A stretch of DNA of 64,000 nt, from the sequence record NC_020079.1; one strand, 5' to 3'. Made by a program: the position numbers and the translations under genes. Under the pieces are notes generated by a model that had not been told where the DNA came from, searched no databases, and saw only the letters and a list, made by a program, of their open reading frames with translations. This stretch comes from Escherichia phage phAPEC8. Below, one piece after another: positions 2,239 through 62,154 of the stretch (within the stretch, counting starts at the first letter, position 1; every line of letters begins with the position of its first letter).

Positions 2239-5004
2239 ATGTCAACTACAATTACTAATTTACCCGAAACATCAAAAGTTAATGGTTCTGATTACCTGGT
2301 TTTAGATCAACCTGATAAGACTGTTAAAAGCACAGTTTCCAACTTTCTTACTGACACTGGGGTGGTTTTAGCCACCCAGCTAAAAGATACTTCTGGAGCT
2401 ACCAAGTATCCAGAACTTCAAATGTCACGTTGGAGAGATGAAGGTGATCCTAGAGGATGGGGAGCAGTAGGTGACGGAGCAACAGACGATACTAATGCCA
2501 TAACACAGCTTCTTGCTGCTATGCCTGATGGATGGATTGTTGATGGGCGTAATCTCACTTTCAAGGTTACAACACTACCAGATATAAGCAAGTTTAAAAA
2601 CGCTGCTTTTGTTTACGAGCGTATTGTTGGACAACCCCTTACTTACGTATCTGAGGGTTTCTTTGATGGAAATCTGACAAAAATTACGGATACACCATTT
2701 TACAATGCTTGGACGCAAGATAAGACGTTTGTTTATGACAATGTTATATATGCACCATTTATGGCTGGCGAACGTCATGGTGTACAAAACCTCCATGTAG
2801 CGTGGGTTAAATCAGGAGATGATGGACAAACTTGGTCTATGCCAGAATGGTTAACTCCAATTCATCCTGATTATAATGCCTCTTCAGCAAACAAAGTTAA
2901 CTATCATTGTATGAGTATGGGTGTATGTGGTAATCGCTTATATGCGGTGATCGAAACCCGTTACTTATCTAACATGCGATTGAAGAAAGCAGAACTTTGG
3001 TCACGTCCAATGCCTTATTATAGAAGGCCAACTGGAGGCATAACAATTAGTTCTGGGTCTACTACAGCGACAATTGTTTTAGAAAAGCATGGTCTTAAAG
3101 TTGGAGATGCTGTTAACTTTTCCAATTCAGGTGCAACTGGCGTATCTGGAAATATGACTGTTGCATCTGTAATTAACAAGGATACATTTACTGTTACATT
3201 AGCGAGTGCTGCCACATCTAATATAGATAATACAGGAACTACTTGGCATTTTGGAACACGTTTCTGGGATAGCCCTTGGGAAATTACAGAATTACCAGAT
3301 GTTGCCTATTCTACTAATGCAGATTTATGTGTTACAGAAACCCATAGTTTTACAGTTATAGATGATGATAATTACACTTTTGCTGTTGGTTATCACAATG
3401 GTGATGTTTCCCCAAGAAGATTAGGTATTTTGTATTTCAATAATGCTTACTCTGACCCAAGTTCTTTTACTCGTAGAACAATTAGTCAAGAATATGCTGA
3501 CAATGCAGCAGAACCCTGCATTAAATATTATGATGGAATTTTATATTTAACTACCAGGGGTACTTCAACTTCTGCTGCTGGTTCTACATTAGCAATGAGT
3601 ACCGACCTTGGAGAAAACTGGAACTACTTAAGATTCCCTAACAACGTTCATCATACAAACTTACCATTTGCAAAAGTTGGTAACTACCTTTATATCTTTG
3701 GTACAGAACGTTCATTCGGAGAATGGGAAGGAGAAGAACTAGATAATAGATATAAAGGCACGTATCCTCGAACGTTTATGTGCAAGATTAATGTATCTTC
3801 ATGGCCTACATCTTTATCCGATGTTCAATGGTTTAATATCACTGATCAGATGTATCAAGGGCATATTGTTAATTCTGCATGTGGTGTTGGTTCGGTATGT
3901 GTTAAAGATGGTTGGTTATATTATATCTTTGGAGGCGAAGATTTCTTATCTCCTTGGTCTATTGGGGATAATAGTAAAAAATTATGGTACAAGCATGATG
4001 GTCATCCAGCCGATTTATATAGTTATAGACTAAAGATTACCGAACATGATTTTGTATCACGTGATTTCAAATATGGAGCTACGCCAAACCGTACATTGCC
4101 TGTATCTATGGGTACAGATGGGGTAAGGCATGTCTCAGCCCCTGTAACTTTTGATAATGATGTACAAGTATACTCTTTAACAGTTACTGGCCTTGAGCAT
4201 GATGGGACACAACAATCTGCCGTTAGAATAAAATTAGATGGTGATTATGGGGTTGTTGCAAAAAATGTCCCAATAAAAAATCCTTCTAAACAGCGACTAA
4301 TCCTATGTGGAGGAGAAACTCCTTACGTTACTGATGGATCGCTATTACAACTATATGGTTCAAACCATACGTATCCAAACAGAGCAGTTTTATATGCCCC
4401 AGGAGGAGCATATACCCAAAATAATTTCATGCCGTATTTAGATGGACAAGTTGCATTAGGCGGTGCGTCTAACAGATGGTCAGAAGTGTACGCATCTACA
4501 GGAACCATTAATACTTCAGATGGAACATTAAAAACTAAACCTACAGAGATTGAAGATATTTTACTGAAAGCATGGGAAGATATTCATGTAATCTCTTACC
4601 AATGGCTTAGTGCTGTCGCGGAGAAAGGAGATTCTGCGCGTATTCATTTTGGTGTTATAGCTCAAGATGTAAGAGATATTCTGATTAATTATGGCTTAAT
4701 GGATGAAAATAGCACTGATTGTAAGTATGCTTTTCTGTGTTATGATGAATACCCTGCTATGTACGATAGTGTTGTTACGGGACAAAAAGAAATCCCTTTA
4801 TTTGATGATGAAGGGAATGTTGTAATTGATGAAGAAGGTAATCCAGTAACAATCGTAGAAGATGTTGTAGAAACTATCGAAATAATTCCAGCAGGATCGC
4901 GATGGGGTATCCGCGCTGACCAAATGTTTTTTATTGAGATGGCTTATCAACGTAAAAAGTTAAAAGCTCTTGAAGAAAGACTTGCAACCCTGGAAAGTAA
5001 ATAA
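2239..5004 (+). CDS. Tailspike/tail fibre with C-terminal intramolecular chaperone (peptidase S74-like) domain
   Basis: 921 aa; C-terminus TSDGTLKTK...ARIHFGVIAQDVRDIL...FFIEMAYQRKKLKALEERLATLESK matches the self-cleaving chaperone domain of endosialidase-type tailspikes and L-shaped fibres. Confidence 0.65.
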   Translation: MSTTITNLPETSKVNGSDYLVLDQPDKTVKSTVSNFLTDTGVVLATQLKDTSGATKYPELQMSRWRDEGDPRGWGAVGDGATDDTNAITQLLAAMPDGWIVDGRNLTFKVTTLPDISKFKNAAFVYERIVGQPLTYVSEGFFDGNLTKITDTPFYNAWTQDKTFVYDNVIYAPFMAGERHGVQNLHVAWVKSGDDGQTWSMPEWLTPIHPDYNASSANKVNYHCMSMGVCGNRLYAVIETRYLSNMRLKKAELWSRPMPYYRRPTGGITISSGSTTATIVLEKHGLKVGDAVNFSNSGATGVSGNMTVASVINKDTFTVTLASAATSNIDNTGTTWHFGTRFWDSPWEITELPDVAYSTNADLCVTETHSFTVIDDDNYTFAVGYHNGDVSPRRLGILYFNNAYSDPSSFTRRTISQEYADNAAEPCIKYYDGILYLTTRGTSTSAAGSTLAMSTDLGENWNYLRFPNNVHHTNLPFAKVGNYLYIFGTERSFGEWEGEELDNRYKGTYPRTFMCKINVSSWPTSLSDVQWFNITDQMYQGHIVNSACGVGSVCVKDGWLYYIFGGEDFLSPWSIGDNSKKLWYKHDGHPADLYSYRLKITEHDFVSRDFKYGATPNRTLPVSMGTDGVRHVSAPVTFDNDVQVYSLTVTGLEHDGTQQSAVRIKLDGDYGVVAKNVPIKNPSKQRLILCGGETPYVTDGSLLQLYGSNHTYPNRAVLYAPGGAYTQNNFMPYLDGQVALGGASNRWSEVYASTGTINTSDGTLKTKPTEIEDILLKAWEDIHVISYQWLSAVAEKGDSARIHFGVIAQDVRDILINYGLMDENSTDCKYAFLCYDEYPAMYDSVVTGQKEIPLFDDEGNVVIDEEGNPVTIVEDVVETIEIIPAGSRWGIRADQMFFIEMAYQRKKLKALEERLATLESK

Positions 5005-5052
5005 TACAGCTTAGGTGGTATTTCAATCTTTATATCCCACTTAGAGGTACTC

Positions 5053-5316
5053 ATGGCTAAAGAGAAAAATGGTTTTAAAAAATTTATTCGCGGAATGTTC
5101 TGCACTTACCCCGGCAACGGGGTAAGCTCTACGAAAGTCTGGAACGCTGTAGGCATGTCTGTTATGACAGGCATGTTTATCTTTTTAGGAATAGAAAAAG
5201 AAATTCCTGAATGGATGGGCTGGGCTTTTGTTTTCATGATAACCCCTTCTCGCCTCATGAAAAATCTTATTGATTTACGTTGGGGCAGATCACAATCTAC
5301 CAAAGAGGATGACTAA
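5053..5316 (+). CDS. Small membrane protein
   Basis: 87 aa with hydrophobic segments (MSVMTGMFIFLGI, WMGWAFVFMITP); RBS present; sits inside the structural operon. Confidence 0.35.
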   Translation: MAKEKNGFKKFIRGMFCTYPGNGVSSTKVWNAVGMSVMTGMFIFLGIEKEIPEWMGWAFVFMITPSRLMKNLIDLRWGRSQSTKEDD

Positions 5317-56482: not shown

Positions 56483-57667
56483 ATGGCAGCACCAAAATCA
56501 TGGGAACAATATAAAGAAGAGTGTCAACCAATAGCAGAGAGTAAGCAAATCCAAATCTTAGGATGGACGGGAGAATGGAAAGGGGTTAATACAAAACTTG
56601 ATTTGTTGTGTCATTGTGGTTATAAATGGGATACTACAAGTATTAACAGTTTTAAACGTGGTGGTGGTTGTCCTATGTGTGCAGGTCAAATTAAAGATTT
56701 AAAAACATACCTTACTGAATGTAAACCAATAGCGGAAGCTAAGGGGATTACCATCATAGGTATCGTAGAACCGTTTAAAGGTGCGCGTACGAAAATGATG
56801 CTACGTTGTAGGTATGGTCATGAATGGAATACATGCAGTTTTGATAGTTTTAAACATGGCAGTGGTTGTCTTATATGTAGGTATGAGAACACAAGGAGGT
56901 CACAAACAATACCAGACGATCAACATATTGCAGATTTCTTTTCTACAGGGAAGTTTAAGGAAGGTACTATTTTCACCAATACGGGGGAACGTAAAGGGTG
57001 TGATCCAATATGGATGGTTCAGTGTCCTGTTTGTTCTCATGATGAATATGTTAAAGCTGGACTATGTGATGGTAAGTTTTATATGACGCGTAGCAATCTT
57101 AAATATGGACACTTACCCTGCCGTTGCTCTGCATCTTATAGGTATACAGCGGAACAGATTACGTATAAAGTAAGAAAGAAAATAGAAAAGAAAGGGTATG
57201 TTTGGATAGGATGGATTACCAAACCATCTTCTATAGGTAAGTTTAAATATGTATGTAAGAGTCATGGGGAACAAAAAGGAACTGCAAACAACCTTTTAAA
57301 CATAGGACAAGGTTGTCCGCAGTGTGCTAACAAAAATCAACAACAAGCCTACATTAATTATATTTACGATGAGCAAGATATTCTCTGTGCACTGAAGTTT
57401 GGTATTGCTAATAATAGTAATCGCCGTATCAAAGAACAAAATAGTCGTAATGTGTTTACTATGAAACAGGGTCAAGTGTGGCACTTCCCTACTGTGAAGC
57501 AATGCAAAGATGCAGAAAAGCGTTGTAAGCGTGTCCTTCACACGGAAGCAGTGAGCAAATATTCTATGCCAGATGGCTACACAGAGACAGTAGAGTTATC
57601 TTGCATGGCCTCAATACAAAACATTTATAAACTTTATGGTGGAATATTACAGGAGGAAACATGTTAG
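56483..57667 (+). CDS. Tandem zinc-ribbon repeat protein, possible nuclease-like C-terminus
   Basis: 394 aa; four ~55 aa repeats each ending in a CxxC knuckle (GCPMCAGQ, GCLICRYE, CPVCSHDE, GCPQCANK); C-terminal YINYIYDEQD...KFGIANNSNRR weakly GIY-YIG-like. Confidence 0.4.
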   Translation: MAAPKSWEQYKEECQPIAESKQIQILGWTGEWKGVNTKLDLLCHCGYKWDTTSINSFKRGGGCPMCAGQIKDLKTYLTECKPIAEAKGITIIGIVEPFKGARTKMMLRCRYGHEWNTCSFDSFKHGSGCLICRYENTRRSQTIPDDQHIADFFSTGKFKEGTIFTNTGERKGCDPIWMVQCPVCSHDEYVKAGLCDGKFYMTRSNLKYGHLPCRCSASYRYTAEQITYKVRKKIEKKGYVWIGWITKPSSIGKFKYVCKSHGEQKGTANNLLNIGQGCPQCANKNQQQAYINYIYDEQDILCALKFGIANNSNRRIKEQNSRNVFTMKQGQVWHFPTVKQCKDAEKRCKRVLHTEAVSKYSMPDGYTETVELSCMASIQNIYKLYGGILQEETC

Positions 57668-58026
57668 TTGACGTTCAAATTATGCGCAACGAAAGGATGG
57701 ATTTCTTTGAAGCAGTAGAGAAACATCTGATCCGATGGGACTATGAATTTGTTCCTGCTGGATGTGGACCAGTAGAGCATTTAGCGGAAGACGATGATGT
57801 ATACATGATCATTCGTCAAGTGTACCAGACAGACCAGTGTGAAGAAACTCCTGAACTAATTTTGTTTGAGTGCAAAGATCTTGCAAAATATTTTGACTAT
57901 GGCGGAAAAGAGGGTCATAATCTCTCCAGATACAATAAACGTCTACTTATCTTAGACTACATGCGGAACAATAAACACAAACTCATCGACGCAGACGCAG
58001 TTTATGGCTACTGGTGGATGGACTAA
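57661..58026 (+). CDS. Hypothetical protein
   Basis: 121 aa ORF. Confidence 0.35.
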   Translation: MLVDVQIMRNERMDFFEAVEKHLIRWDYEFVPAGCGPVEHLAEDDDVYMIIRQVYQTDQCEETPELILFECKDLAKYFDYGGKEGHNLSRYNKRLLILDYMRNNKHKLIDADAVYGYWWMD

Positions 58027-58039
58027 CAAAGGAGAAACT

Positions 58040-58228
58040 ATGGCACGTTTAGCAGATCATGAAATCTTTAAACCTATTCTGAACCACTATGATGAACTTA
58101 AAGCAGTGTTGGATTGTTATAGAGAGGATGAAGAACGTTTGGAAGTCAATCTTAAGATAGTTCTGATGAAAGCTTTTCAAGACGGGCAAGCTAAAGTTTT
58201 AGAAGGCATGAAAAATGAGAATAACTGA
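58040..58228 (+). CDS. Small hypothetical protein
   Basis: Start at ATG behind AGGAGA. Confidence 0.3.
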   Translation: MARLADHEIFKPILNHYDELKAVLDCYREDEERLEVNLKIVLMKAFQDGQAKVLEGMKNENN

Positions 58229-58757
58229 TGAATATGTATTCTTCTTTTCACATAAAGATGTGTTTAGTAATTGGTATATTGCACCCTTTACAGAAACTGA
58301 ACCAGGTTACAATCAGACATTTAATTGTGTCGAACAATACATGATGTGGCGTAAAGCTTTGCTTTTTAATGATCACAACACTGCACAGGCTATTCTGACT
58401 CATAGTTTGATACGGAAAGATGAGAAGATCCAAGCTTATTACAAACGTATGGGTAGGGCAGTGTCAGATTTTGATAACAACGTATGGGAAGAGAACCGTG
58501 AGCGTATTGTTATGCGAGGTTTATGCTTGAAATATGTACAGAATCCAGATTTGTATGCAGACTTACACCTTTACCAATACAAAACGTTTGTTGAAGCAAG
58601 TCCTTACGATAAGGTTTACGGTATTGGAATGGGAATGTATGAACCAGGGGTGCTAAATCCGGTCAACTGGAAAGGGCAAAATCTTTTAGGTAAATATCAT
58701 AACAAACTGATCGAAATACTTTTCCCAGACAAAATACCGCAAAGACGATATTTGTGA
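58215..58757 (+). CDS. NADAR (YbiA-like, DUF1768) domain protein
   Basis: 180 aa; YVFFFSHKDVFSNWYIAPF, FNCVEQYMMWRKALLFND, GQNLLGKYHNKLIEIL match conserved NADAR blocks. Confidence 0.55.
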   Translation: MRITDEYVFFFSHKDVFSNWYIAPFTETEPGYNQTFNCVEQYMMWRKALLFNDHNTAQAILTHSLIRKDEKIQAYYKRMGRAVSDFDNNVWEENRERIVMRGLCLKYVQNPDLYADLHLYQYKTFVEASPYDKVYGIGMGMYEPGVLNPVNWKGQNLLGKYHNKLIEILFPDKIPQRRYL

Positions 58758-58812
58758 TATTTTAACTTTTTTCATTTTTAGAACAAAGGTGTCACTTTGT
58801 AGCACAGAAATA

Positions 58813-58848
58813 AGGCTCCTACAGCACCGTAGAGAGCCTGTTATTTTG
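58813..58848 (+). terminator. Rho-independent terminator ending the + strand block
   Basis: AGGCTCCTAC...GTAGAGAGCCT stem followed by GTTATTTTGT. Confidence 0.5.
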
Positions 58849-59000
58849 TCCTATACAAACCCTTATCTTTTTCAGTTTGCATCACTAGGATTCGATCTAA
58901 GTGGGTTCCTGAAGGTTTACCAATAAGATTAAAGGTTATCTCAAATTCCCACTACCTATTATCTCAAAAATCCCTCAAATTATTTAAACTTTTTAAGAAT

Positions 59001-59047
59001 TTACAAAAGTGAAAGTTGAAAACCAAAATTTAAAGTTTAGGAAAATT
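59001..59047. repeat. AT-rich direct repeat, copy 1
   Basis: ttacaaaagtgaaagttgaaaaccaaaatttaaagtttaggaaaatt; about 75% identical to the copy at 59139-59186. Confidence 0.5.
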
Positions 59048-59138
59048 ATCTTAAAATGTTAGATACAAAACAAAACTCAAAAGTCAAGGAAAATTTTAAA
59101 AATTTTGCGCGCCCACAGTATTTAAAGTTTTTTTGCTT

Positions 59139-59186
59139 TTACAAAAATGAAAGTACAAAAGCAAAATTTAAAGTTTACAAAAATTT
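59139..59186. repeat. AT-rich direct repeat, copy 2
   Basis: tttacaaaaatgaaagtacaaaagcaaaatttaaagtttacaaaaatt. Confidence 0.5.
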
Positions 59187-59223
59187 ATGCAGGTGGGAAT
59201 GAGAAGAGTTCTCATGTGGAAAT

Positions 59224-59242
59224 GCAAATGATAATGATTCGC
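59224..59242. promoter_or_regulatory. Fur-box-like palindrome 1
   Basis: gcAAATGATAATGATTcgc; 14/19 to consensus GATAATGATAATCATTATC. Confidence 0.35.
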
Positions 59243-59281
59243 ATTTAAGTTTATAAATGAGATTGATTCTTATTCAATAAG

Positions 59282-59300
59282 GTAAATGATAATCATTCTC
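59282..59300. promoter_or_regulatory. Fur-box-like palindrome 2
   Basis: gtAAATGATAATCATTctc; core AATGATAATCATT perfect, 17/19 to consensus. Confidence 0.45.
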
Positions 59301-59531
59301 ATTTAGAGAATGACGCGCAGGGGTGGTGTTTGTCTCGCGCTCCCGTGTCCCCTCGCCATGTAATAAGAATAACAGATCCAACCAGGAAAGCAAGCGATTA
59401 TTTTATCTTTACATTTCTTTACAAATATATAGCGCCCAGCCTACCGGCGATCAACCTTCCAACCAGTGCCCCTGGTATGTTAGCCCCGCCTTTACGCCGT
59501 GGGGTGGCGCTTCCTCTTCTGTATGTAAAAC

Positions 59532-59560
59532 AGTATAAGCCCGATCCCTGGGCTTGTCAA
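59532..59560 (-). promoter_or_regulatory. Strong sigma70-like promoter on - strand facing the GC-rich non-coding segment
   Basis: - strand TTGACA-N17-TATACT; the same DNA on + strand forms hairpin AAGCCC..GGGCTT followed by a T-rich run. Confidence 0.4.
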
Positions 59561-59562
59561 TA

Positions 59563-59829
59563 TTATTTTTTGTTTTCTTGCCAGGATAGGACACCTAACC
59601 AAAAATGCATGTCGCCCCGCGCCCCTGGTGGGATCTTGCTTTCCCCGCCGCCACTGCAAGCCCATAAATAACCATCAGCGAACGGATCAAAATTTTCTAT
59701 TTCTTCCACCTTATGATCGCCCAGGTTGAGAACTGTTTCAACCTTTAAGCCCGTTGCGCTTGCTACCTGGTGCACCGTGCCGCCTTGCCAGCCCAATGAG
59801 TGCATAAGGTGTAATGTAGTATTTGTCAT
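59563..59829 (-). CDS. Hypothetical protein with high-GC, host-like composition
   Basis: 88 aa ORF; GC-rich codons unlike neighbours; upstream TTGCTA-N17-TATTAT. Confidence 0.4.
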   Translation of the reverse strand: MTNTTLHLMHSLGWQGGTVHQVASATGLKVETVLNLGDHKVEEIENFDPFADGYLWACSGGGESKIPPGARGDMHFWLGVLSWQENKK

Positions 59830-59938
59830 GGTGTCGCCCTTTCTTTGTTGTGCGCCCTGGTTGGCGCGGTAGAAAGATAATAGCCCTTTCCTTTACATAT
59901 AGCAAGCAAAAAGAAAATAAAAAAGATTGAAAAAGTGG

Positions 59939-59997
59939 TTGACGTTCCTCACCTGGTAGCGTAGTATTCATCTTGTAGGGCGGCAATGGTGCCGCTC
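59939..59997 (+). promoter_or_regulatory. Promoter-hairpin cassette 1
   Basis: TTGACG-N17-TAGTAT then GGGCGGCAATGGTGCCGCTC hairpin, RBS, ATG 60017. Confidence 0.55.
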
Positions 59998-60016
59998 ACT
60001 ATTTGGAGTTAAGATC

Positions 60017-60214
60017 ATGGCAACATTGCACATTGTGGCGAAAGCTGGACAAATCAACGTAATAGTAAACGGTTTTACTGAGTTCAGTCATCCCCAGGAT
60101 GATCATGAAACGGTTTTATCTTTCATTGATTCCCTGTTAGAAATGGGAGTAATTACAGAAGACCAGCACGCTACAAAATGCAAACGCGTTAATCAAATTG
60201 CAGGAATAGAATAA
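60017..60214 (+). CDS. Early small protein
   Basis: 65 aa; RBS GGAG. Confidence 0.45.
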   Translation: MATLHIVAKAGQINVIVNGFTEFSHPQDDHETVLSFIDSLLEMGVITEDQHATKCKRVNQIAGIE

Positions 60215-60220
60215 AAAGTA

Positions 60221-60282
60221 TTGACAACAAACAACAACCTGATAAGATGTACCACATAGGGCGGCGGAATGGTCCACCGCTC
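60221..60282 (+). promoter_or_regulatory. Promoter-hairpin cassette 2
   Basis: TTGACA-N16-TAAGAT then GGGCGGCGGAATGGTCCACCGCTC. Confidence 0.55.
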
Positions 60283-60304
60283 ACAACAGAAGAGAGAAAT
60301 CATC

Positions 60305-60577
60305 ATGGCATCATATAGCGCAACAATGATCGTAGTCGGCACCACTGGTAAACCTATGAGCGGTGGCGGATCTTTCGCAAATATCAACATTGACGGGCGT
60401 TTATCCCTGGACGCAGCGATCACCGTGGCGCGGGAAACATTTAAGAAAGAATGTAAATTCAATAAACAAGATTATCTCGGTTTCGCTATTGAAAAAACCG
60501 CGCGTTTTGTTGATTATAAAAGCCCAAAAATGGTTGATACTACACTAAAAGCGCAAGATGTAGCGTTTTTGCTTTAA
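60305..60577 (+). CDS. Early small protein
   Basis: Start at ATG (MASYSAT) behind AGAAGAGAGA; the longer track ORF begins inside the hairpin. Confidence 0.45.
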   Translation: MASYSATMIVVGTTGKPMSGGGSFANINIDGRLSLDAAITVARETFKKECKFNKQDYLGFAIEKTARFVDYKSPKMVDTTLKAQDVAFLL

Positions 60578-60580
60578 GGC

Positions 60581-60635
60581 TTGACATTAACGAATAATTT
60601 GTTAATATGTTACATAAAGCGGGAATAGTTCCCGC
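60581..60635 (+). promoter_or_regulatory. Promoter-hairpin cassette 3
   Basis: TTGACA-N16-TAATAT then GCGGGAATAGTTCCCGC. Confidence 0.55.
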
Positions 60636-60653
60636 TATTTGTAAGGTGGTAGA

Positions 60654-60911
60654 ATGTTTTACATCAAATTAAAAGGTCACGTGATCGCGTTCAAAGATAA
60701 CGCTTTTTACAGATTAGCAAAATATGCGTTAATACATCCCCACTATGTTTATATAAGGGGGCGTGATGAAATAAATATCTTTGATCAAACAACATGCGAA
60801 AACATCGAGATCCGCAAGGTTGGCGTACGTGATTATCGTACATCTTTCTACCCTTGCAAGGATTCAGCAAGTCTTTTTAAAGTATGCCAATTGTTGAAAA
60901 AAGGTGGTTAA
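60654..60911 (+). CDS. Early small protein
   Basis: 85 aa; RBS AAGGTGG. Confidence 0.45.
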   Translation: MFYIKLKGHVIAFKDNAFYRLAKYALIHPHYVYIRGRDEINIFDQTTCENIEIRKVGVRDYRTSFYPCKDSASLFKVCQLLKKGG

Positions 60912-60912
60912 T

Positions 60913-61470
60913 ATGGGCCGCGAATATGTGATCCAGTCTTGGGTAAAACATGAAGCAGATGATCCGCGCATCATTCCCGATCATCTTATCGATGAATCCA
61001 CGGGATATAGCGGTGAGCAAATAGGTAACAGATTAGCACGTAGTAACGGCAACGTAAAAGCGCGTTATGTGCGCCCTGGCTGGCTGGCAAATGGTAACGC
61101 TGATTTATCCAGTGCGGAAGATGCGAGCGACGGCGCGAAAGATAATCCTTTGTACAAAGTTGATCCGGCTTTTCGTGTCCTAGATGAATACCCCAGCAAG
61201 ATAGCGGCGCTTGATGAAGCATTGGAAAGTAAGCGCATCACCTGGACCGCTTACAACATGGCAAAAAACGTACTTGATGGTAAATTGATTCAAGCTGAAA
61301 GAAAATTAGCCAAAATTGCAGCCATAGCCCAGGAGGAAGACGAGGAGACAACGGAAGAGGAAGAGTACGAAGAGATCCCGCCGTTGTTGTGTGTTGATGC
61401 TTTTCCTGATTATCAGCCGACAGAGGAAGAAAAAAGGATCGCACTAGAAAACTTTGAAAATAGTCTTTGA
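60913..61470 (+). CDS. Early protein with acidic C-terminal region
   Basis: Start at ATG (MGREYV) behind AAGGTGG; EEDEETTEEEEYEE stretch. Confidence 0.4.
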   Translation: MGREYVIQSWVKHEADDPRIIPDHLIDESTGYSGEQIGNRLARSNGNVKARYVRPGWLANGNADLSSAEDASDGAKDNPLYKVDPAFRVLDEYPSKIAALDEALESKRITWTAYNMAKNVLDGKLIQAERKLAKIAAIAQEEDEETTEEEEYEEIPPLLCVDAFPDYQPTEEEKRIALENFENSL

Positions 61471-61525
61471 CATATCGCCGCCACTGGCATAATATTTACC
61501 ACGTAGGGCGGCAATGGTGCCGCTC
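61467..61525 (+). promoter_or_regulatory. Promoter-hairpin cassette 4
   Basis: TTGACA-N17-TAATAT then GGGCGGCAATGGTGCCGCTC. Confidence 0.55.
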
Positions 61526-61552
61526 ATAGTGAAATTATGCAAGAGGCTTACA

Positions 61553-61660
61553 ATGATTAATAAAGGAAATAGCTTGACAGTTGGAACGATTAACGCTATC
61601 ATCTTAGTCGTTCCATTCTGGATCACCGTGGCAGTTATCGCAACAATCATTTTCAAGTAA
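61553..61660 (+). CDS. Small hydrophobic peptide (35 aa, not in ORF track)
   Basis: MINKGNSLTVGTINAIILVVPFWITVAVIATIIFK; first ORF after cassette 4. Confidence 0.3.
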   Translation: MINKGNSLTVGTINAIILVVPFWITVAVIATIIFK

Positions 61661-61670
61661 GGGGCACACC

Positions 61671-61862
61671 ATGTTTAAAAATATCACTGGCAACGTAGCA
61701 ACATTGAAAGCAGGCGACAAAGTAGAATTGCACCGGATCACAATGACAGTAGCGCACGTCGAGAAAGTGCCACCGCATCACCGCAAGATCTCGCTAATGT
61801 GCGACAAAGGGCGCAACATTACCGCCACACTGCACGAAAAAGATAACGTAGTCATTTTGTAA
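61671..61862 (+). CDS. Early small protein
   Basis: 63 aa; RBS AAGGGG. Confidence 0.4.
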   Translation: MFKNITGNVATLKAGDKVELHRITMTVAHVEKVPPHHRKISLMCDKGRNITATLHEKDNVVIL

Positions 61863-61872
61863 GGTGGACACT

Positions 61873-62154
61873 ATGAGCAAGGTAATTAACTATAAAGAGT
61901 TAAGCCCTACCCTTTCAATGAGTGAATGTACCGATGGGTATTGGCTGTATGATGAAACGCGCGGCATGAATTTAGCAATGCAAGCGAAAACCGAACAAGC
62001 GGCATATGTGCAAGCCCTGGAATATTACCAGCGACGACTACAGGAAGTCGAAAGCAATTATAAAAGCCTGAAATCAAAGGTTGATCACTTTATCAACCAG
62101 GTAGCAGATGACGATGATGATCACTACTGCGAACGATGCGGATCATATAGTTAA
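61873..62154 (+). CDS. Early small protein
   Basis: Start at ATG (MSKVINYK) behind AAGGTGG. Confidence 0.4.
   Translation: MSKVINYKELSPTLSMSECTDGYWLYDETRGMNLAMQAKTEQAAYVQALEYYQRRLQEVESNYKSLKSKVDHFINQVADDDDDHYCERCGSYS

Follow-up and report, generated by a model that had tools for sequence, protein, structure and literature searches.

A conserved, phage-restricted candidate non-coding RNA locus with tandem host-type promoters and Fur-like palindromes in Escherichia phage phAPEC8 and related phages

A stretch of 64,000 nucleotides from Escherichia phage phAPEC8 (sequence record NC_020079.1; hereafter the window) contains a GC-rich island at positions 59300-59900, which belongs to a putative non-coding RNA (ncRNA) locus that separates a + strand gene block from an array of small + strand early genes. 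Read leftward, i.e., on the - strand, the locus comprises an open reading frame (ORF) for a protein of 88 amino acids (aa), a sigma-70 promoter (P1), a predicted structured RNA (RNA-B), a second promoter (P2), a further plausible RNA unit (RNA-A), a series of palindromes that resemble Fur sites, and an AT-rich stretch with direct repeats (Table 1). The original prediction had described the island as DNA of likely horizontal origin, with a host-like 88-aa gene and a strong - strand promoter pointing into sequence without a credible ORF, possibly a small structured RNA. All features that it described were found where it had placed them, and the rise in GC content is real: with 0.491 compared to a mean of 0.393 over the window (z = 3.8; sd 0.026 among windows of 600 nt), positions 59300-59900 rank first among all 600-nt windows of the 64 kb. 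Judged from the sequence comparisons given below, the island is a conserved, so far unannotated block of predicted ncRNA genes with tandem host-type promoters and Fur-like palindromes at its end, which is shared by two subfamilies of large enterobacterial phages. Its high GC content is due to RNA helices and GC-rich promoter spacers rather than to foreign DNA.

The region 58700-60300 shows 96-99% identity to many Phapecoctavirus genomes (phAPEC8/ESCO13 group, Stephanstirmvirinae), and a sensitive blastn search with 59290-59900 yielded 237 phage records. The distant matches, which include the Vequintavirinae genera Seunavirus, Certrevirus, Mydovirus, and Henunavirus, span only approximately the first 240 nt of the query, which is the non-coding part, at 70-82% identity, and many of these genomes have no annotated feature there. 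When positions 57000-62000 were compared with nine distant loci, each with 1.5-kb flanks, 59196-59530 was the sole stretch that could be aligned to five Vequintavirinae genera (68-81% identity), and this stretch stops at the predicted start site of P1. Scans of IMG/VR and of metagenomes led to further divergent copies, the long contigs among which are ~140-150 kb in size. Altogether, the RNA units have been conserved in phages infecting Escherichia, Klebsiella, Salmonella, Cronobacter, Pectobacterium, and Erwinia, and the island is syntenic and ancestral in the two subfamilies. In annotated relatives the DNA to the left of the 88-aa ORF is either unannotated or carries inconsistent + strand ORF calls. 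Two records that are named 'Campylobacter phage B15/A110a' (MG065650.1 / MG065689.1) match this E. coli Phapecoctavirus locus at 93-99% identity, and their Campylobacter host label is probably wrong.

Outside of phages, the picture is different from what the original prediction had expected. A blastn search against 5,426 E. coli genomes gave no match to the island, and in a pattern scan of 100,044 species genomes there were seven chance matches in high-GC coding sequence and one mis-binned phage fragment, namely a 4-kb Phapecoctavirus fragment (L063, JAEZZU010000352.1) that had been binned into a 'Proteobacteria' metagenome-assembled genome. Since this fragment is the only genuine match among the bacterial genomes, a host-derived island is not supported, and the reading of the locus as a horizontally acquired, host-derived island with a host-like gene is largely refuted. 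The GC content, 10 points above the phage background, speaks for such an origin; the synteny and ancestry in two phage subfamilies and the lack of any sign of host origin in the 88-aa family speak against it. A related idea is that a small protein gene was overlooked within 59290-59560, where a few submitters have annotated + strand ORFs (Ro121lw, GEC_vB_MG). These annotated ORFs differ from each other in frame and extent. The ORFs over 59290-59560 are all short with GTG or TTG starts, and the conserved core varies in length between 49 and 60 nt with all residues modulo 3 represented; no frame is open across it in all sequences on either strand. The claim that no credible ORF lies downstream of the promoter was therefore borne out by the relatives, in which no frame is conserved, and taken together the explanations by host-derived DNA or by a missed small gene are very improbable. 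A scan of 57000-62000 against Rfam 15, one of the checks that had been proposed, matched no family at E <= 1, and for six relatives the Rfam scan gave just two chance snoRNA matches (E about 1-2), both outside the element. ARAGORN detected no tRNA or tmRNA gene in the window, and record MZ726793 holds no terminal-repeat annotation.

The 88-aa ORF is annotated as 'hypothetical protein' in relatives and matches phrog_19316 (E = 1e-58). None of its 21 homologues is functionally annotated, the long contigs that carry them are phage-sized (~140-150 kb), and one entry labelled E. coli is the sole bacterial annotation in the family. Fourteen aligned homologues are of similar length and share 45-93% identity, with hardly any variation among the 35 N-terminal residues (GWQGGTVHQVAxATGLKVxTILNL), which may resemble a helix-turn-helix. 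The AF2 model (pLDDT 94) is all-helical with five helices; a fold search yielded no significant match in the PDB, and a search against Pfam found no domain. In other genera the same slot is taken by an unrelated small ORF or by none. On this evidence the ORF is a real, ordinary, and phage-restricted gene that is not host-like. The original prediction was thus right about the ORF and about a promoter-like site of its own (P0), which is arranged back-to-back with the first early promoter of the + strand (59939-59967); its host-like nature is not supported.

P1 is the best-scoring promoter site in 58500-60800, with an A-tract immediately upstream. In ~30 dereplicated relatives its hexamers are kept at a spacing of 17-18 nt (TTGACA, TTGCAA, or TTGACG as -35 and TATACT, TATATT, or CATAAT as -10 element), whereas the spacer sequence varies by lineage; overall, ~50 relatives retain the two hexamers and their spacing. 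The predicted - strand promoter is in this way confirmed by conserved hexamers over variable spacers. The GC-rich spacer forms a hairpin (59555..59537 on the - strand), which doubles as a terminator-like structure behind the 88-aa ORF, as it directly follows the stop codon and is succeeded by ATACTGTTTT. Read on the + strand (59535-59557), the same hairpin has its T-run only ~10 nt past the stem and would make a poor terminator. The + strand hairpin with T-run that the original prediction had pointed out exists, but it is the P1 spacer and no separate + strand RNA gene.

A second promoter, which the original prediction had missed together with the RNA unit behind it and the ending of this unit in a Fur-like palindrome, is found in nearly all relatives ~161 nt after P1 (TTGCAA/TTGATC-16/17-TATATT/TATTAT, again with a variable GC-rich spacer). 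In the phAPEC8 lineage the ancestral P2 has decayed and a lineage-specific 10-nt insertion has created a replacement. We read this replacement as a likely sign of selection for a promoter at this position. The second promoter is immediately preceded by a doublet of TGTAAAGA, which is conserved at this place in alignments of the relatives, shows no enrichment elsewhere in the window, and is a putative upstream promoter element or factor site. Further leftward promoter-like sites, weak and on the - strand, are embedded in the palindromes, with the form TTTATA-18-TATCAT in phAPEC8 and TTCAAn-17/18-TATCAT among relatives; some genera have additional ones past the palindromes. A + strand promoter within the palindromes (TTGAAT-18-CAGAAT) was considered and dismissed, as several lineages do not have its -35 element and Mydovirus has lost the key A of the -10 element (by eye).

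The fold of RNA-B was tested on an alignment of 25 sequences (A6), which brings together typical and divergent copies; the latter stem from phage records (L009, L031) as well as IMG/VR and metagenome contigs (L038, L041, L043, L044, L045, L050, L070, L074, L077, L096, L099, L106). Paired cells amount to 89.3% compared to 82.8% in shuffled alignments, 27 cells are changed on both sides compared to 8.9 expected, and the covariation score is 0.158 compared to 0.069; none of 500 shuffles reaches any of these values, which, given that the shuffle control ignores phylogeny, are supportive numbers and not probabilities. In slid registers at most 48% of the cells are paired and the covariation score is at most 0.033. 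Alignment columns 38-60 hold A-U in 18 and G-C in 7 sequences, columns 41-58 C-G in 22 and G-C in 3, and columns 43-56 A-U in 11, C-G in 5, and G-C in 2, and in the pseudoknot stem columns 15-30 hold C-G in 18 and A-U in 6. The hairpin has at least six versions whose sequences are unrelated, and in Klebsiella phage FKP3 a different hairpin has been substituted. With a covariance model built from the alignment, the window gives a single match, which scores 88.7 bits and lies at 59441..59514 on the - strand. These data support an RNA-B fold in which the hairpin and the pseudoknot stem are held by compensatory changes. The suggestion of a structured ncRNA downstream of P1 has thereby gained ground, with covariation above the shuffled and slid controls and no reading frame kept. 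Another helix proposed by RNAalifold (GGCGG:UCGCC) was discarded, as divergent homologues swap GGCGG for ACUUG with the partner unchanged.

As Watson-Crick covariation alone cannot separate RNA from cruciform DNA, it might be that the locus is a purely DNA-level element, such as a protein-binding, packaging, or recombination signal, and that RNA structure is incidental. Long invariant stretches and perfect palindromes are indeed typical of protein-binding DNA. We consider this decidedly unlikely, given that conserved promoters are correctly placed to transcribe the element, that hairpin sequences have been replaced wholesale with the pairing kept, and that G.U-for-G-C exchanges are seen on one strand only. 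On the - strand G.U cells outnumber A.C cells by 14 to 5, which mostly reflects pairs alternating between G-C and G.U (columns 36-62, 17-76, and 18-75). The - strand hairpin is also more stable than its + strand counterpart in 18 of 19 RNA-B versions, a figure that is weak alone since a G-rich strand tends to fold better, and single-sequence folding gave weak z-scores of -1.8 and -1.6 for the two strands. The sole conserved promoters at the locus point leftward. In a Mydovirus-like contig (L027, 6420-7013, - strand) a gene for a 197-aa HNH endonuclease (phrog_953, E = 8e-79) has entered the locus directly behind RNA-B and ahead of the second promoter. Its ribosome-binding site, AAGGAGG, follows RNA-B too closely for a promoter to fit in between, and the gene uses RNA-B as its 5' leader. 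An HNH gene is also annotated under a blast match (H69) in Klebsiella phage K23PH08C2. Because of the excess of G.U over A.C, the leftward promoters, and the HNH insertion behind RNA-B, we suggest that RNA-B is made from the - strand. An extended + strand hairpin from RNAalifold, which shares the CCCC:GGGG pairing, was kept as an alternative only, since the G.U counts and the promoters favor the - strand.

In RNA-A, the 5' sequence AUGGCG(A)GGGG would pair with CCCCU(GCG)CGUCAU, whereby the 5' strand (AUAGCGGG or AUGGCG) can pair with CCCGCUAU or CGUCAU, and the apical loop is invariant. The RNA-A structure as a whole is plausible. The unit is found duplicated in one Vequintavirus, which has two RNA-A units with palindromes and in which the covariance model finds no copy of RNA-B. 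Mydovirus genomes carry an extra, diverged cassette of promoter, RNA-A, and palindrome between two co-oriented ORFs elsewhere in the same locus. Behind this cassette come a further TGTAAAGA doublet and then a promoter that again has a GC-rich spacer and precedes a 109-aa ORF. Since RNA-A occurs both duplicated and in this extra cassette, the RNA units look like gene-like modules. The single promoter-RNA unit of the original prediction therefore holds for P1 and has to be extended by a second tandem unit.

The position of RNA-B directly after a promoter, its pseudoknot with invariant unpaired stretches, and its use as leader of the HNH gene in one relative would also fit a cis-regulatory leader. 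RNA-B would then be a riboswitch-like sensor or a put-like polymerase modifier that decides on read-through past the RNA-A hairpins and the Fur-bound palindromes. Here it would make sense that the CGGCG of RNA-B could pair either with the upstream CGCC or with the downstream CGCCG, and that three pairings of RNA-A (its 3' hairpin, the hairpin of the palindrome, and the helix between its 5' and 3' strands) exclude one another in series. Nevertheless, this explanation is unlikely: apart from the HNH gene inserted in one contig there is no - strand ORF downstream in the window or in most relatives, no terminator follows RNA-B, no riboswitch or leader family of Rfam was matched at E <= 1-5, and the Vequintavirus mentioned above does without RNA-B.

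The palindrome motif has 9 strand matches compared to 0.51 expected, all of them within 59198-59303 and none elsewhere in the 64 kb. At the last palindrome, 59282-59300 matches the E. coli Fur consensus GATAATGATAATCATTATC at 16 of 19 positions, and this is the only such site in the 64 kb (0.01 expected). The last palindrome belongs to the RNA-A unit and occurs in every relative, to which between zero and three further copies are added (one to four in total). Phages of many Enterobacterales genera have retained its sequence, whereas the AT-rich repeats to the left differ by lineage, and this contrast may hint at a conserved protein of the host, e.g., Fur. To the left of the palindromes, 58900-59290 is non-coding with a GC content of 0.27, and the repeat block at 58900-59200 looks origin-like or operator-like.

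In this context, the locus might be a cis-acting origin or DNA-transaction module, in which P1, P2, and the leftward sites fire into the AT-rich stretch 58900-59290 and activate or prime replication. RNA-A and RNA-B would in this case serve as precursors of primers or as leaders that form R-loops, and a factor of the host or the phage would bind to the palindromes. The succession of two to four leftward promoter-like sites, the AT-rich block with its 72-nt direct repeats, repeated motifs that are lineage-specific in relatives (by eye; AAAATGGATTTTC and A6T6 tracts, e.g., in L009 and L013), and a - strand RNA that is mildly G-rich (63 G vs. 50 C) are in line with this. In addition, a block of rV5 was called 'non-coding' and has no ORFs, and rV5-like phages encode a polymerase of the Pol I type and a helicase-primase that resembles T7 gp4 (PMC3606486). 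On the other hand, no DnaA boxes were found, and the cumulative GC skew, which peaks at ~18 kb and bottoms at ~52 kb, where the coding strand probably switches orientation, has no inflection at 59 kb. The number of palindromes varies from one to four among the relatives, a 0.7-kb HNH gene can part RNA-B from the rest, and the extra RNA-A cassette stands between ordinary genes without obvious iterons. Moreover, origins of the T7 type need no conservation at the level of a pseudoknot. We regard an origin as the main rival of the reading preferred below, although on balance as somewhat unlikely.

What is firmly supported by comparative analysis is a conserved, phage-restricted, and promoter-driven locus of predicted ncRNAs with at least one fold, that of RNA-B, kept by compensation. 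As to its function, we tentatively favor the following reading, which we hold with less than even confidence: RNA-B and RNA-A would be structured RNAs that are made early by the host RNA polymerase and act as RNA, with the palindrome gating the 3' end. The host sigma-70 enzyme would transcribe the locus leftward early in infection. From P1 this would give RNA-B of ~100 nt, pseudoknotted by pairing of CCC(C) with (G)GGG and of CGGCG with CGCCG and with the irregular hairpin inside, and from the second promoter ~160 nt downstream RNA-A of ~75 nt, which would be a stem with the GAGACAAACACC loop and end in a hairpin made from a palindrome that resembles a Fur box. Both RNAs would then act, as regulators or decoys, on a factor that is conserved across the Enterobacterales hosts or across these phages, and the palindrome, bound by Fur or in the form of RNA hairpins, would set or gate the 3' boundary. 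We prefer an action as RNA because the units are modular and gene-like, tolerate a 0.7-kb insertion, and carry invariant unpaired motifs. The accumulation and the ends of these RNAs, their action in trans, and any role of Fur are inferred.

Several observations weigh against this reading. The invariant loops could equally serve DNA-binding proteins, and tandem promoters that face an AT-rich, repeat-rich stretch fit a role in cis at least as naturally. Besides the phylogeny-blind shuffle control, much of RNA-B is invariant, so that several helices have no variation by which to judge them, and no terminator-like site lies between RNA-B and P2. The outer helix of RNA-A is 92% paired with many G.U pairs and shows no excess over shuffles (70 of 500 reach it), and its 3' hairpin, with 9 pairs of which 3 are GC, an AU-rich stem, and an interrupted U-tail (UAUCAUUUAC), would be a weak terminator, so that discrete small RNAs are uncertain. 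A search within the window revealed no enrichment of targets of the invariant loops and no target or partner for the RNAs. Searches of the literature on transcriptomes, Fur boxes or palindromes, and ncRNAs of these phages brought up no earlier account of any of them. It is also conceivable that RNA-B, RNA-A, and the Fur palindromes together form an iron-sensing switch, in which RNA-B modifies or accompanies the RNA polymerase and host Fur on the palindromes decides between a stop, with short RNAs as the product, and a read-through into the AT-rich repeats that fires replication; we consider this quite unlikely.

Table 1. Positions of the features of the predicted ncRNA locus and its surroundings (window coordinates unless a contig is named)
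Feature	Position	Strand	Description
P0	59905..59877	-	TTGCTA-17-TATTAT; promoter-like site of the 88-aa gene; 9/12
88-aa ORF	59563..59829	-	'hypothetical protein' in relatives
P1	59560..59532	-	TTGACA-17-TATACT; sigma-70 promoter; 11/12
RNA-B (predicted)	~59525..59426	-	~100 nt; purine-rich 5' leader; 5' end predicted from P1
RNA-B, CGCC	59509-59506	-	candidate upstream partner of CGGCG
RNA-B, pseudoknot stem	59504-59501 with 59487-59484	-	CCCC with GGGG; covariation-supported
RNA-B, long-range helix	59499-59495 with 59449-59445	-	CGGCG with CGCCG
RNA-B, irregular hairpin	59483..59456	-	covariation-supported, with lower stem
P2 region	59366..59424	-	decayed ancestral P2 and replacement promoter
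Replacement P2	59424..59397	-	TTGTAA-16-AATAAT; 9/12; from lineage-specific 10-nt insertion
TGTAAAGA doublet	59406..59423	-	two direct copies 10 nt apart, directly before the second promoter
Ancestral P2	59393..59366	-	TTGCTT-16-TATTCT; decayed in this lineage
RNA-A (predicted)	~59359..59284	-	~75 nt, downstream of P2; both ends predicted
RNA-A, apical loop	59336..59325	-	GAGACAAACACC; GAGACAA(A/U)CACC; invariant
RNA-A, 3' hairpin	59314..59292	-	UCAUUCUC-UAAAU-GAGAAUGA; half of palindrome 4
Palindromes 1-4	starts 59198, 59227, 59256, 59285; span 59198-59303		19 bp, AATGAKAATnATTCKCATT; exact 29-bp spacing
72-nt direct repeats	58976-59047, 59114-59185		two copies, 138 nt apart
Interrupted hairpin	~58812-58848	U-rich tails on both	GGCUC-CUAC...GUAG-A-GAGCC; terminator annotation in ASO2A
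Promoter-stem-loop cassettes	59939-60000, 60221-60290, 60581-60645	+	repeated architecture upstream of small early genes
Extra Mydovirus cassette	L019 ~4960-5110; L016 ~4316		~7 kb away in locus coordinates

On the left, the locus is flanked by the final gene of the + strand block (58215-58757), whose product contains a NADAR domain (Pfam E = 1.8e-35). The phage enzymes that neutralize the DarTG1 defense system are presumably of the NADAR type, and if so this gene may have an anti-defense function. A preprint describes phage 'orphan antitoxin-like enzymes' that neutralize DarTG1 (PMC11257639). At the interrupted hairpin behind the NADAR gene, transcription of the + strand block and leftward read-through, if any, out of the ncRNA locus probably come to a stop. 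On the right, the small early genes each have a near-consensus promoter of their own, followed within ~10 nt by a GC hairpin and then by a ribosome-binding site; in the annotation of one relative these promoter-proximal hairpins are labelled 'terminators'.

Large virulent coliphages of the phAPEC8 and rV5 groups are widely isolated and used in therapy cocktails, and for their ~1.2-kb 'non-coding' block, which has been unexplained since the rV5 genome paper, coordinates, a covariance model, and a predicted fold are now at hand. Its physical coupling to Fur operators that are close to consensus offers a way to ask whether a lytic phage reads the iron status of its host. If the iron switch were true, the early program of the phage or the firing of its origin would be tied to host iron status, which would mean a new RNA class and a new use of a host metalloregulator; if the locus were an origin instead, the same coordinates would mark the still-unmapped replication origin of these phages.

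Among known systems, ryhB is a Fur-controlled small RNA gene in which the Fur box overlaps the promoter. RNA-A is similar in being a small RNA unit coupled to a near-consensus Fur box (16/19), but here the box is located at the 3' end of the unit within the terminal hairpin, and there is neither sequence similarity nor an Rfam match to ryhB. The put RNAs of HK022 are cis-acting antiterminator RNAs that modify the polymerase; like the units described here, they are structured RNAs of ~70-100 nt that follow strong early promoters in tandem or dual copies and have no protein product. They differ in that no delayed-early genes lie downstream in our case and that RNA-B consists of a pseudoknot and one hairpin instead of two stem-loops. 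In T7 the primary origin consists of the tandem promoters 1.1A/1.1B and an AT-rich region, and in ColE1 RNA II is the replication primer. Common features are tandem promoters that face an AT-rich stretch and a structured, mildly G-rich transcript, as well as a Pol I-family replisome such as that of rV5-like phages (PMC3606486). In contrast, the present locus has host-type promoters, strongly conserved transcribed segments, Fur-like palindromes in between, and portable units, and neither GC skew nor DnaA boxes support an origin at 59 kb. Finally, pseudo-ToxI of Pectobacterium phage phiTE (Vequintavirinae) is likewise an intergenic ncRNA gene of a virulent rV5-like phage that is expressed during infection; it is an AT-rich tandem repeat of 36 nt at 106.7 kb next to tRNA genes (PMC3475682). 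phiTE also carries the element described here, at 39.5-39.9 kb, where only 'hypothetical protein' and 'terminator' features and no RNA are annotated. An identity of the two was rejected, as the element is single-copy and pseudo-ToxI of phiTE lies at another locus. In contrast to pseudo-ToxI, the RNAs predicted here would be single-copy, GC-rich, and pseudoknotted, with sigma-70 promoters of their own, and they resemble no known antitoxin.

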